Source: a virus (lineage: Duplodnaviria; Heunggongvirae; Uroviricota; Caudoviricetes). From it: DNA of 17,827 nt. The position numbers and the translations under genes are program-made. The stretch lies in the IMG/VR virus record IMGVR_UViG_2563366903_000004. One strand, written 5' to 3'. The notes beneath the pieces are model-generated. The model was given only the letters and a program-made list of their open reading frames with translations. It ran no database searches and was not told the origin of the DNA. Of the stretch, positions 12,008-16,825 are shown one piece after another. How positions within the stretch are numbered: the first letter of the stretch is position 1; every line of letters starts with the position of its first letter.

Positions 12008-12898
12008 TCAGGCTGCCAGATCATCGTTTCCGATGGAAGCATAATAAGCTTTTTCTGCTTCTGCCGGAGGAGTATGGCCCAGCCTTTCCAGCAATCGTCG
12101 ATTGTTATACCAGTCCACCCACGTGAGTGTGGCCAGTTCCACTTCTGCACGGTTTTTCCAGCTCTTACGGTGTATTACCTCCGCTTTGTAAAGACCATTG
12201 ATGCTCTCCGCCATCGCGTTGTCATACGAATCGCCTGTACTTCCTGTTGATGCCAGTAATCCGGCTTCCTTAAGCCGCTGTGTGTAGGCCAGCGATACAT
12301 ACTGAGAACCTTTATCACTGTGATGGACCGTGCCGGACGGTCGACGGGCCCATAACGCCTGCTCCAGTGCATCCAGCACGAATGTCGTCTCCATGGACGA
12401 TGAGACCCGCCACCCCACAATGTATCCGGCAAACACATCAATGATGAACGCCACATAGACGAAGCCCTGCCATGTGCTGACGTAAGTAAAATCAGCCACC
12501 CACAGCTGGTCAGGTCGTTCTGCCACGAACTGACGGTTTACGCGGTCGCCTGCGGCAACGGCTTTCCGGCTGATGGTCGTACGGACCTTTTTACCCCGGA
12601 GAACACCGGCAAGTCCCATAACCGCCATGAGACGTGCCACAGTGCATCTGGCCACTCTGATACCTTCCCGTAACAACTGACGCCAGACTTTACGCACACC
12701 GTATACCTTGTGATTTTCATCGTATACGCGCTGTATCTCTTTCTTCAGCCAGTCATCGCGCTGCGCACGGGCACTGCGTTTATCCGGATGATATCGCTGT
12801 TGCTGACAGTGGTAATACGTTGACGGGGCAATATGCAGTTCGCTGCATAGCGGTCCGACCCCGTACTGCTCACGCAGCTTATCCAGCAGTGGCATCAT
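12008..12898 (-). CDS. IS3-family transposase OrfB (DDE catalytic domain)
   Basis: 296-aa ORF; recalled as the IS629 OrfB sequence; normally expressed as an OrfAB fusion by -1 frameshift. Confidence 0.9.
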
Positions 12899-13221
12899 TT
12901 TTTCCAGAGGCGGTCGAACTCCGCCTTCGCAAAATAAGCGGAAGCCTGGCGAAGGATATCGTTACTGCGGCGCAGTTCACGATTTTCACGCTCCAGCTCT
13001 TTCAGACGCTGACGTTCAGCGGTGGTGAGCCCTCCATCACCGCCCCCGGTATCCCGCTCATGCTGGCGAACCCAGACACGCAGAGTCTCCGGCGTACAGC
13101 CAATCTTTGGAGCAATGGAACAAATTGTCGCCCATTGTGAGTCATATTCGCCCTGACTTTCCAGAACCATACGGACTGCCCGTTGACGGACTTCAGGGGA
13201 AAAACGAGTATTTTTAGTCAT
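12895..13221 (-). CDS. IS3-family transposase OrfA (HTH domain)
   Basis: 108-aa [60 protein letters not shown]...; ends in an A-rich run (TGG AAA AAA TGA) overlapping the OrfB start, consistent with a programmed -1 frameshift site. Confidence 0.9.
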
Positions 13222-13272: not shown

Positions 13273-13545
13273 TCACTTGGCTTCATTGCACCGTTTGACA
13301 GGTAACTTTGTAATCTCGCTAAGTTGAGAATCGGTGATTCTGTCCATTGGTTTATTCCACCCATAGGTTTTACGCAGAATGGCAAGCAGCACTTTAAACT
13401 GTCGCTTGGTCAGATCTGCGCCTGAATAAGCCTCAATCAGCATATTTGATAGTCTGGCGTAACCATCATCGAGATCTGCCACATTACGCTCCTGTCCGGC
13501 AAAGTTACTTCTGCCGAAGTTGAGTATTTTTGCTGTATTTGTCAT
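13273..13545 (-). pseudogene. O: Replication initiator O, N-terminal 90 codons (truncated by the IS629-like insertion)
   Basis: MTNTAKILNFGRSNFAGQERNVADLDDGYARLSNMLIEAYSGADLTKRQFKVLLAILRKTYGWNKPMDRITDSQLSEITKLPVKRCNEAK matches recalled lambda O 1-90; the stop codon is supplied by the IS end (TGAACC). Confidence 0.85.
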
Positions 13546-14243: not shown

Positions 14244-14321
14244 AGGGATATCCTTTTTCGTACTTTCAGTACGCATTATGATTGAACTGAAAGTTTTTGC
14301 AAGTGCTTTAGTATCGTACTC
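14244..14321. promoter_or_regulatory. cI-cro intergenic operator/promoter region (OR-like) with three palindromic sites and divergent PR/PRM candidates
   Basis: Palindromes CGTACTttcAGTACG (14259-14273), AACTgaaAGTT (14285-14295), AGTAtcgTACT (14310-14320); PR candidate on minus strand: -35 TTGCAA (14297-14302), 16-bp spacer, -10 CATAAT (rc of 14275-14280); PRM candidate on plus strand: -10 TAGTAT (14309-14314) ending 7 nt before the cI ATG. Confidence 0.6.
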
Positions 14322-15029
14322 ATGGTTCAGAATGAAAAAGTGCGCAAAGAATTCGCCCAGCGGCTAGCGCAAGCCTGTAAAGAAGCTGGTCTTGATGAAC
14401 ATGGTAGGGGAATGGCTATAGCCCGTGCCCTTTCTCTTTCGTCCAAAGGCGTTAGCAAATGGTTTAATGCTGAGTCTTTACCGCGTCAGGAAAAAATGAA
14501 TGCGCTTGCGAAATTTCTAAACGTTGATGTTGTTTGGCTTCAGCACGGCACTTCGTTAAATGGAGCGAATGATGAAGATACTCTTTCATTTGTTGGCAAA
14601 TTAAAAAAAGGGTTAGTGCGCGTGGTTGGTGAGGCAATTCTTGGTGTTGATGGTGCCATCGAGATGACCGAAGAGCGCGATGGGTGGCTCAAAATTTATA
14701 GCGATGATCCAGATGCCTTTGGTCTTCGTGTGAAAGGAGACAGCATGTGGCCCAGAATAAAATCAGGAGAATATGTACTCATTGAGCCTAACACCAAAGT
14801 ATTTCCGGGGGATGAGGTGTTTGTCAGAACTGTTGAAGGACACAACATGATCAAAGTTCTTGGCTATGACAGAGACGGAGAATACCAATTTACAAGCATC
14901 AACCAGGACCACAGGCCAATAACGTTGCCTTATCATCAAGTAGCAAAGGTGGAGTATGTGGCTGGTATTCTGAAGCAATCTCGCCATCTGGATGACATCG
15001 AGGCAAGGGAGTGGCTGAAAAGTTCGTGA
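14322..15029 (+). CDS. cI: CI prophage repressor (HTH N-domain plus S24 LexA-like autopeptidase C-domain)
   Basis: 235-aa ORF; C-domain has the GDSM serine-nucleophile motif (RVKGDSMWPRI) and a downstream Lys (MIKVLG); no SD before the ATG and a -10-like TAGTAT ends 7 nt upstream, suggesting a leaderless PRM-type transcript as in lambda. Confidence 0.85.
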   Translation: MVQNEKVRKEFAQRLAQACKEAGLDEHGRGMAIARALSLSSKGVSKWFNAESLPRQEKMNALAKFLNVDVVWLQHGTSLNGANDEDTLSFVGKLKKGLVRVVGEAILGVDGAIEMTEERDGWLKIYSDDPDAFGLRVKGDSMWPRIKSGEYVLIEPNTKVFPGDEVFVRTVEGHNMIKVLGYDRDGEYQFTSINQDHRPITLPYHQVAKVEYVAGILKQSRHLDDIEAREWLKSS

Positions 15030-15111
15030 CTTCATCGTCACATAGCTGGTAACCAGTGGCCTGAAGAGACGTTTGGGTGATGTACATAGCATTTCTGGAT
15101 AAAAATACAGA

Positions 15112-15153
15112 TTCCCTTTATGGGAAATGAATCTATAATTCCCAAAGAGGGAA
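15112..15153 (+). promoter_or_regulatory. Promoter/operator region of the HigB-like operon: two TTCCC-N5-GGGAA palindromes flanking a TATAAT -10 element
   Basis: TTCCCtttatGGGAA (15112-15126), TATAAT (15134-15139), TTCCCaaagaGGGAA (15139-15153); no good -35 hexamer found. Confidence 0.5.
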
Positions 15154-15165
15154 CAAAATCGGATT

Positions 15166-15453
15166 ATGAAGGTCTTAAACGTAGAGAGGCTTCACAGTTT
15201 TAGCCGGAAGCACAATCAGGCCAAGGGGGCTTTAGACTCTTGGTATGATGAAGTGATAAGAGAAAACTGGAAAACGACTCAAGACATACGGAATAGATTT
15301 AATTCTGCCGACTTCCTTCCTAACAACAGGGTAATTTTTAATATAAAAGGCAATAACTATCGGCTCGTTGTCCAAGTTGTTTACCAGGCAGGAATGGTCA
15401 TAGTTGAAAGAGTTGGAACTCATGCAGAGTACGACAAGTGGAGGCTTAAATGA
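15166..15453 (+). CDS. HigB/RelE-superfamily toxin-like protein (95 aa)
   Basis: C-terminal half FNIKGNNYRLVVQVVYQAGMVIVERVGTHAEYDKW matches the HigB pattern (recalled E. coli HigB ...FNVGGNELRVVAMVFF...IREVMTHKEYD); toxin-first order as in higBA; stop overlaps the next start (ATGA). Confidence 0.65.
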   Translation: MKVLNVERLHSFSRKHNQAKGALDSWYDEVIRENWKTTQDIRNRFNSADFLPNNRVIFNIKGNNYRLVVQVVYQAGMVIVERVGTHAEYDKWRLK

Positions 15454-16106
15454 ATCGAACTAGCTGGCGCATCATTAAAAATAGTGAAGAGCATGCTGCA
15501 GCTATGGAAAGGCTCATTGAACTTGCGTCTAGTGATTTACAACCTGGAACTGAAGATTTTGATGAGTTTGAACTACTAGGCTTGCTTATCGAGCACTATG
15601 AGTCACGCGAGTTCCCTATGGACAAGCCAGATCCCATAGAAGCAATCAAGTTCCGTATGGATCAACAAGGCCTCTCTTATGCCGATATGAAACAATACAT
15701 TGGCTCAGCATCTAAAGTATCTGAGGTCTTAAATCGTAAGCGTCCATTAAGTCTTTCAATGATCCGTAGACTACATGACGGACTTGGAATTCCTGCAGAT
15801 ATCTTAATTCAAGATATGAGCGCAATTGAATGGAGCCTAGTTGACGCAGAGGAAGAAGAAACAGCCATGACTAGCGTCATTGCTCGGTGTGAGTCAGCCG
15901 TCACATCACCTTCTGCTTATTTCGCTGAAAAGGCTACAGAATCTTACTTTTCAAAAATGTTGTTCAGCGCAGTAAGGGGTAATGGCAAATGCAAAGAAAA
16001 ACGGAATGTTTTTTCTTTGATAAGTAACTTGTCATCAAGTTTCACAGCGGCTAGCAACCTGAATGACGAAATGACTTCTGACGGAAATTACTTATTATTA
16101 CCATGA
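15450..16106 (+). CDS. HigA-like XRE-HTH antitoxin with ~90-aa C-terminal extension (candidate chaperone-addiction domain)
   Basis: 218 aa; residues ~60-130 (SKVSEVLNRKRPLSLSMIRRLHDGLGIPADILI) resemble the HigA HTH region (recalled ...VSRVLSGKRKLTLEHAKKLATRFGISPALFI); extra C-terminal tail absent from canonical ~100-140-aa HigA; ATGA overlaps at both ends. Confidence 0.6.
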   Translation: MNRTSWRIIKNSEEHAAAMERLIELASSDLQPGTEDFDEFELLGLLIEHYESREFPMDKPDPIEAIKFRMDQQGLSYADMKQYIGSASKVSEVLNRKRPLSLSMIRRLHDGLGIPADILIQDMSAIEWSLVDAEEEETAMTSVIARCESAVTSPSAYFAEKATESYFSKMLFSAVRGNGKCKEKRNVFSLISNLSSSFTAASNLNDEMTSDGNYLLLP

Positions 16107-16507
16107 AAATTGAACTCATTAGCAAAAAAGTTGAACGCTTGGTTATGACACGGCTAGAAGGCGATTCAACAGCAAAAAAAGCCATAAAAACAACCGTTAA
16201 TCTAAATAATGAACTTTACACTAATGTGAAGGATTCAAAGCTATTTAGAGTGAGATATTTTGCCTCCGTAACTATTGAAGGCAGGCTTGAGATGGACATC
16301 ACATACGACTTTGACTTCCGGTCAGAAGATGATTTTTCTCATGAAATGGCAAAATCATATGAGGTAAGGTCCATTGCTCCCAATATGGCATATCCCTATA
16401 TAAAAACATATGCCGAGCAAATTATCCTCATGTCAAACCTTGGTAGGTTCACTCTGCCTTATTTTGATTTCTTGGCCAATCCCATGGAAACGAACAGTAA
16501 TAAGTGA
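16103..16507 (+). CDS. SecB-like chaperone candidate (134 aa), third gene of the module
   Basis: C-terminal block APNMAYPYIKTYAEQIILMSNLGRFTLPYFDF resembles the E. coli SecB block [33 protein letters not shown] (recalled); ATGA coupling to the antitoxin gene; intrinsic terminator immediately downstream. Confidence 0.5.
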   Translation: MKIELISKKVERLVMTRLEGDSTAKKAIKTTVNLNNELYTNVKDSKLFRVRYFASVTIEGRLEMDITYDFDFRSEDDFSHEMAKSYEVRSIAPNMAYPYIKTYAEQIILMSNLGRFTLPYFDFLANPMETNSNK

Positions 16508-16516
16508 AATTCCCCA

Positions 16517-16542
16517 CCCGGCCTCAGCGCCGGGTTTTCTTT
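16517..16542 (+). terminator. Intrinsic terminator after the SecB-like gene (tImm-like)
   Basis: CCCGGC-ctcagc-GCCGGG hairpin followed by TTTTCTTT, starting 10 nt after the stop codon. Confidence 0.7.
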
Positions 16543-16825
16543 GCCTCACGATCCCCCACCTAAAAAAACATAACCATTTGTATTTATAGATGTAACTCGC
16601 TAAACCATGCAGTTCTGATCCCTGCCGCATAACCTTCATCAGCCACATTTTCAAAAATAAATTTCCTTATATATCAGAATCATACTTCGTAGAGTTAATA
16701 AATCACCAAAATTCGTACCAATAGTTCTTGATAATGTCGAACTATTGGTTCATCATTATCGTCATCAGCAGGACGCATTACTCACCAGGGCGGTGAATAT
16801 ACAACGATTCGAATATGAATCTACG

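Follow-up and report, generated by a model that had tools for sequence, protein, structure and literature searches.

The 136-bp gap between a cI-type repressor gene and a HigB-like toxin gene in the viral DNA analysed here (17,827 nucleotides, hereafter the window) contains two copies of the palindrome TTCCC-N5-GGGAA, and the question that this locus raises is what these two sites do. According to a preliminary description, they bracket a promoter of the toxin–antitoxin (TA) type that is autoregulated by the antitoxin. Alternatively, they might bind some other regulator, act in the form of RNA, stop transcription of the opposite strand, or be there by coincidence. We assign a probability of about 0.85 to the reading that the palindromes are operators for the HigA antitoxin, situated in a sigma-70 promoter that the downstream module has of its own; this reading is built on comparison of sequences.

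Direct reading of the window confirms the positions of the two palindromes that the preliminary description had given. Site 1 (O1; 15112–15126) reads TTCCCTTTATGGGAA, i.e. TTCCC-TTTAT-GGGAA, and site 2 (O2; 15139–15153) reads TTCCCAAAGAGGGAA, i.e. TTCCC-AAAGA-GGGAA, with no strand being assigned to either. As also claimed, they bracket a perfect TATAAT hexamer (15134–15139, plus strand), which proves to be the single copy of this hexamer on both strands of the whole window. The centres of the sites are 27 bp apart, the half-site centres within a site are 10 bp apart (one helical turn), and the higB ATG starts 13 nt past the end of O2. Because the O1 and O2 15-mers are inverted copies of each other at 13 of 15 positions, the 42-bp block can also be viewed as one larger imperfect dyad. 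The exact pattern occurs nowhere else on either strand of the window, and no third site turns up there with up to one mismatch allowed. The half-sites are short, only 5 bp each, which leaves some room for coincidence, and with one mismatch tolerated 19 of 200 shuffles give two or more matches somewhere in the window; the exact pattern, however, was found in none of 200 dinucleotide-preserving shuffles.

The TATAAT is our candidate −10 element of the module's promoter, PhigBAC. Its last T is the first T of O2, and transcription would be expected to start at about 15145–15148, under O2. The notion that the operators overlap the −10 element and the start site is thus borne out for O2, whereas O1 lies 7 bp away from the −10 hexamer and covers the presumptive −35 element instead. 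The latter is TTCCCT (15112–15117), the left half of O1, placed 16 nt from the −10 hexamer; it is weak, agreeing with TTGACA at three of six positions, and a better approximation to TTGACA was not found at a distance of 16–18 nt. Since the consensus promoter scan that we used requires at least four of six matches at −35, PhigBAC is missing from its output, and its status as a promoter therefore rests on conservation: the −10 hexamer is perfect, unique in the window and kept in relatives. Directly upstream of O1 lies a conserved A-rich block, ctGGATAAAAatACAGA (15095–15111, plus strand), which might serve this promoter in the manner of a proximal UP element; we take it to resemble the proximal UP subsite AAAAAARNR.

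The genes downstream of this promoter are more than the two-gene HigBA module assumed in the preliminary description. The order on the plus strand is cI (14322–15029; Peptidase_S24 and helix-turn-helix (HTH) domains), the 136-bp gap, higB, higA, higC, a terminator and, further downstream, N. The first gene of the module, higB (15166–15453, plus strand), codes for a RelE-fold mRNA interferase toxin of 95 amino acids (Pfam HigB_toxin, 4.6e-30; PADLOC PD-Lambda-2_A, 5e-42), for which HigB of E. coli/Shigella is the nearest PDB entry. The second, higA (15450–16106, plus strand), encodes the antitoxin and putative repressor, a protein of 218 amino acids that we characterized by a PDB search, AlphaFold2 and Foldseek. 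Its residues 1–124 are modelled with pLDDT above 90 as a folded core of the K-12 type, with a recognition helix of the HTH at residues 87–94, and residues 125–218 (pLDDT below 50) form a disordered chaperone-addiction (ChAD) tail. The best Foldseek matches are the K-12 HigA structures 6kmq, 6kml and 6jq4, K-12 HigA is hit in the PDB search at 5e-5, residues 5–127 match PADLOC PD-Lambda-2_B at 3.8e-50, and the Pfam HTH_3 score is 20.9 bits, under the cut-off of 23. The third gene, higC (16103–16507, plus strand), specifies a protein of 134 amino acids that matches PADLOC PD-T4-9_C (CmdC, the chaperone of CmdTAC) at 3.2e-11 and is named SecB in one source, with no match among Pfam families (SecB included) or NCBIfam models; NCBIfam likewise gives no match for HigB or HigA. 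Judging from these similarities, the third ORF is a SecB-like chaperone, HigC, and the module is a toxin–antitoxin–chaperone (TAC) system, HigBAC. Both stop–start overlaps, higB/higA (15450–15453) and higA/higC (16103–16106), read ATGA, which suggests translational coupling.

The transcription unit formed by cI and higBAC is closed, ahead of the PL/N region, by a strong intrinsic terminator at 16516–16545 (plus strand; a 7-bp stem with six G-C pairs followed by TTTCTTT). A terminator directly after higC corresponds in position to the one that follows rexB in lambda, where rexAB are transcribed by read-through from PRM. The terminator scan lists no plus-strand intrinsic terminator between cI and higB (15029–15166), so that read-through from PRM into higBAC is likely to occur beside transcription from the module's own promoter. 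The preliminary description had argued that the module is regulated on its own rather than being only a passenger of the PRM transcript; this is supported by the sequence comparisons described below, with PRM read-through as a probable addition.

The window module apparently represents the same system as HigBAC of E. coli NT1F31, an antiphage system characterised recently, as judged by protein lengths and published key residues. In that strain HigBAC sits in a lambdoid prophage, at a variable locus downstream of cI, and provides defence against lambda when the phage tail protein gpV and the ChAD tail of the antitoxin compete for HigC, the SecB-like chaperone (Mets et al., bioRxiv 10.1101/2024.02.24.581848). 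As in NT1F31, HigA of the window has 218 residues, with the ChAD at 122–218 and W128, F158, F188 and Y214 all in place, and HigC likewise has the pocket residues Y39, N41, R49 and D71. The work on NT1F31 relied on constructs driven by PBAD or Ptet to study toxicity, chaperone addiction and the gpV trigger, and it makes no mention of operators or autoregulation (bioRxiv 10.1101/2024.02.24.581848). Our literature search on HigBAC did not find a promoter or operator study, and for the motif in combination with HigA nothing relevant came up.

The closest model for the promoter layout comes from a system that lacks the chaperone. The promoter of the E. coli K-12 higBA locus (ygjNM) has been mapped, and HigA represses it (PMC2814082). 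With the upstream sequence GTTGCCAATCTGGCAAC-ggatgt-TATCAT-ATTGCCAATTTGTCAAC, this locus shares with the window the gene order with the toxin first, the HigB and HigA folds (both being the nearest PDB matches), two inverted repeats around the −10 element with the second repeat starting at the −10 end, and a −35 element (TTGCCA in K-12) inside the left half of the first repeat, 16 nt from the −10 element. The two loci differ in the half-sites (GTTGCCA-N3-TGGCAAC in K-12 versus TTCCC-N5-GGGAA in the window) and in the centre-to-centre spacing (29 versus 27 bp), and K-12 HigA, about 30% identical to the window protein, has neither a ChAD tail nor a chaperone. By analogy with this HigA-repressed promoter of the same plan, the suggestion that the window has the layout of an autoregulated TA promoter gains support. 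Two further systems are comparable in principle. The M. tuberculosis TAC system (HigB1-HigA1-Rv1957) is autorepressed by HigA1 at a palindrome lying over the −35 element (PMC3968373); unlike the window module, it has another motif, a much shorter ChAD and two promoters, one of them inducible by DNA damage, and it is chromosomal rather than prophage cargo. In HigBA of P. vulgaris Rts1, a single TA promoter contains operators O1 and O2, to which HigA dimers bind (PMC12266136; HigA–DNA structures 6chv and 9chl), but that HigA belongs to a different subfamily (the Foldseek match is confined to the HTH, with E of about 0.04–0.1 and 20% identity) and the operator sequences differ from those in the window.

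If the palindromes are operators for HigA, they should accompany higA genes elsewhere. We therefore collected loci with HigA relatives from three sources: at least 80 loci from many phyla, with one representative genome per species and HigA 39–61% identical to that of the window; 80 loci from IMG/VR; and assemblies with closer TAC relatives. Across the 67 distant loci listed, namely those whose higB start could be identified, 26 exact copies of TTCCC-N5-GGGAA fall between −120 and −15 relative to higB, versus 0 in 322,772 other positions, and with up to one mismatch the numbers are 43 and 8, respectively. With the outermost base pair left free (xTCCC-N5-GGGAx), 103 of 120 non-redundant loci from many phyla carry one or more exact sites upstream of higB (two sites in 23, a single site in 80), and most of the 17 loci without an exact site carry a version with one mismatch. 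Among the two-site loci the spacing is that of the window, 27 bp, in 20 of 23 cases. The N5 spacer is 89% A/T over the 120 non-redundant upstream regions. Its conservation in the loci compared here extends from Bacteroidota to Gammaproteobacteria. Such recurrence at the same place in more than 100 independent loci speaks against coincidence, and with none of the 200 shuffles yielding the exact pattern, an enrichment of 26 versus 0 and sites in 103 of 120 loci, we reject the idea that two short palindromes came to lie beside an AT-rich hexamer by chance; what credence it retains is negligible.

The motif always adjoins core promoter elements in the loci examined, in arrangements that vary with the taxon. 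In betaproteobacterial loci it takes up the spacer that separates a TTGCxx −35 from a TAnnnT −10 element (for example in locus L029, TTGCGCaaGTCCCaatttGGGACTATCAT), in Bacteroidota it precedes a TAnnTTTG element, and in gammaproteobacterial loci it ends 6–8 bp before TATAAT. Most one-site loci have their single site at the O1 position, 6–8 bp ahead of a −10-like hexamer. For the two-site loci we compared 20 distinct sequences, with HigA down to 49% identity. Conserved in this set are only the four half-sites, the TATAAT (TATACT in a few) at a constant distance from site 1, the C after site 2 and the upstream block ctGGATAAAAnnACAGA; variation is free in the 7 bp that separate site 1 from the −10 hexamer and in the leader that follows site 2. 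The O1 half-sites are invariant in all close and distant two-site relatives, and the upstream A-block is moderately conserved, with varying flanks.

These comparisons also bear on the possibility that the palindromes work as RNA. In a transcript reading through from cI, they could form two small hairpins or a single one of 14 bp that would affect processing, stability or higB translation. Indeed, the minimum free energy fold of 15030–15185 pairs O1 with O2 (z-score −2.9), the isolated 48-nt segment folds at −17.7 kcal/mol, and positions of one N5 can pair with those of the other in 39 of 50 cells over 10 distinct site pairs. The leader of higB adds a point in the same direction: the 12 nt between O2 and the higB ATG (15154–15165) hold no convincing Shine-Dalgarno sequence, and the sole purine-rich, Shine-Dalgarno-like run upstream of higB is GAGGG, 15 nt upstream and inside the right half of O2. 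The lack of such a sequence near higB suggests that translation of the toxin is deliberately weak. The 80 non-redundant single-site loci, however, can form only a 5-bp stem of −6 kcal/mol, and many loci have the site placed between their −35 and −10 elements, i.e. upstream of the module's own transcript. What is conserved is the TCCC/GGGA sequence and not the pairing, which in the N5 falls to 2/5 and 4/5 in the two most distant two-site loci. There is no U-tract either, so that the structure is not a terminator. We thus consider a role of the palindromes as RNA quite improbable in comparison with HigA operators.

Termination could in principle concern the opposite strand, with the O1 palindrome serving as an intrinsic terminator of minus-strand transcription. 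The terminator scan does list TTCCCATAAAGGGAA followed by TCTGTATTTT on the minus strand, and the corresponding A-block of the plus strand is conserved. Yet the stem has only 5 bp with three G-C pairs, cI, higBAC and N are all on the plus strand with no minus-strand gene or promoter known to read into the site, and such a function would leave unexplained both O2 and the single sites of loci without a T-run. Antisense termination is accordingly highly unlikely in our opinion, more so than a function in RNA.

The genomic surroundings of the module call for attention to the prophage regulators. Situated about 85–125 bp past cI, within an immunity region where repressor sites abound, the two palindromes might bind CI, Cro or a host factor instead of HigA. 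The sequence between cro and cI contains a perfect palindrome of its own, CGTACTTTCAGTACG (14259–14273), which is likely an OR operator unrelated to the HigA motif; the terminator scan flags it as well. From 14602 onward the window is 99.6% identical to the Stx phages BP-4795, ST2-8624 and Stx2a_WGPS9, in whose records the higBAC ORFs are annotated only as hypothetical proteins or as a transcriptional regulator. The identity to BP-4795, ST2-8624 and other Stx phages begins only at this position, inside cI, and because the N-terminal, DNA-binding half of CI, the OR region and cro differ in immunity type from those phages, cI is mosaic. Elsewhere in the window, two overlapping minus-strand ORFs (108 and 296 amino acids; 12008–13221) look like orfA and orfB of an insertion sequence of the IS3 family, presumably an IS629-like one. 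Adjoining this element is an ORF of 90 amino acids (13273–13545) that looks like a truncated N-terminus of a lambda-type O replication protein, and the prophage may thus be replication-defective.

What follows cI is exchangeable. Other cargo stands behind this cI allele (WP_000250473.1) in about 300 further complete E. coli genomes: of the 5,426 complete genomes, about 300 have only the first ~50 nt after cI in common with the window, and 88 carry the higBAC promoter together with higB. Homology to the window in prophages with the same cI ends 49–54 nt past the cI stop codon, at about 15078–15084, and the alternative cargo consists of genes for a DUF3024 protein, a hypothetical protein and a Ser/Thr kinase, or of small hypothetical genes (loci L170 and L171). 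This boundary coincides with a remnant of another cI gene. In frame after the cI stop, positions 15030–15080 translate to LHRHIAGNQWPEETFG followed by a stop, and the end of this translation, QWPEETFG-stop (15054–15080, plus strand), where the cassette alignment starts, is what we take to be the C-terminus of lambda CI. The relic of this lambda-type cI 3′ end is, to judge from the alignment, the left edge of the mobile cargo and the recombination joint for cargo exchange behind cI. Conversely, HigBAC with invariant palindromes and TATAAT is found behind unrelated cI genes in prophages of Klebsiella, Salmonella and Serratia. With the cargo boundary lying upstream of it and the module occurring behind unrelated cI genes, the promoter–operator block (15095–15153) belongs to the mobile cargo. 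That it travels with the module supports the idea, already raised in the preliminary description, that HigBAC has regulation of its own.

This mobility, and the occurrence of the motif with HigA homologues in chromosomal, non-phage loci without cI in many phyla, are hard to reconcile with binding by a prophage repressor. The motif stays invariant behind unrelated cI genes, the cro–cI palindrome is different, and the window lacks further sites resembling TTCCC-N5-GGGAA. Given that the motif follows HigA into phage-free loci and that the cro–cI palindrome has another sequence, binding by CI or Cro is unlikely, and we give little credence to any regulator other than HigA, no more than to a role in RNA.

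A more direct link to HigA is provided by variation of the motif itself. Members of the HigA family hardly differ in the HTH segment GSASKVSEVLNRKRPLSL, and the outermost base pair of the half-sites falls into three classes, T/A, G/C and C/G. In a set of 88 non-redundant proteins, these classes are matched by residue 88 of HigA, the second residue of the predicted recognition helix 87–94 (codon at 15711–15713, plus strand, in the window): Ser88 goes with a T...A outer pair in 55 of 55 cases, Asn88 with G...C in 22 of 24 and Gly88 with C...G in 9 of 9. No alignment column has higher mutual information with the operator class than that of residue 88 (1.26 of the possible 1.27 bits), and at residue 91 (codon at 15720–15722, plus strand) the G...C class has Tyr instead. 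With the HTH columns excluded from tree building, the covariation requires only two or three independent changes, the operator classes being nearly monophyletic, and for this reason it is no more than suggestive. The tracking of the outer base pair by a protein residue is a further point against the palindromes acting as RNA. Together with the co-occurrence of motif and HigA family, it strengthens the proposal that the palindromes are the putative DNA target of HigA, and the correlation suggests a simple way of trying to swap operator specificity.

The family within which the motif is shared extends beyond HigBA and HigBAC. In PD-lambda-2, HigA is fused to a Peptidase_M78 (ImmA/IrrE) domain instead of carrying a ChAD tail, and there is no SecB-like gene. 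The window module is not a PD-lambda-2 system: its HigA covers only positions 3–125 of the 402-position PD-Lambda-2_B model, its C-terminus being a ChAD. HTH–Peptidase_M78 fusions of 400 amino acids are encoded in loci L019, L007, L023 and about 26 others, with a full-length match to PD-Lambda-2_B at 2.6e-160 in L019 (2174–3688). Two exact sites 27 bp apart around TATAAT are present in the PD-lambda-2-type loci L019 and L023, L007 shares this arrangement apart from a single mismatch in site 1, and 19 of the 29 loci with the long HigA have at least one exact site. As the long fusions carry the same sites, one core of HigB, HigA HTH and operator appears to serve HigBA, HigBAC and PD-lambda-2 alike.

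The regulation that we propose on these grounds is as follows. A dimer of HigA would bind, through its HTH, to each of the TTCCC-N5-GGGAA sites, so that O1 would mask the −35 element and O2 the end of the −10 element together with the start site. Occupied operators would exclude RNA polymerase, and higB-higA-higC would thereby be under negative autoregulation. Once derepressed, the promoter would be strong by virtue of its perfect −10 hexamer and A-rich upstream block, despite the weak −35 element within O1. PRM read-through would also transcribe the module, and the operators could act as a partial roadblock to it. Given this read-through, the share of the module's own promoter in a lysogen might be small. 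The solubility of HigA is known to depend on HigC (Mets et al., bioRxiv 10.1101/2024.02.24.581848), and since HigA needs HigC in this way, a phage trigger that titrates HigC should relieve repression of the promoter as well as liberating HigB.

This leads to a broader picture, comprising three propositions that we put forward jointly and tentatively, as a conjunction that is conceivable and rather less probable than its negation: that the operators report the folding state of HigA, that the loci share a chassis with at least three interchangeable input modules, and that residue 88 sets operator specificity. Under the first, a phage tail protein would titrate HigC, HigA would misfold and leave O1 and O2, and the strong promoter would be released; if so, the resulting burst of toxin transcription would amplify abortive infection. 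Under the second, the HigB toxin, the HigA HTH and the TCCC-N5-GGGA operator would constitute the conserved core, and the input module would be absent in plain HigBA, a ChAD tail plus a SecB-like chaperone in HigBAC and a fused M78 peptidase in PD-lambda-2.

In kind, the element described here is ordinary, a TA operator pair within an already known system, and it leaves the general understanding of TA autoregulation unchanged. Apparently new are the motif as such, the fact that it is conserved across phyla and common to plain HigBA, HigBAC and PD-lambda-2-type loci, and a candidate specificity residue. The promoter and its operators offer a handle on the relative shares that PRM read-through and the module's own promoter have in its expression, and on the possible coupling of chaperone-based phage sensing to derepression. 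Being conserved from Bacteroidota to Gammaproteobacteria and common to HigBA, HigBAC and PD-lambda-2, the motif can help to annotate this toxin family and its promoters.
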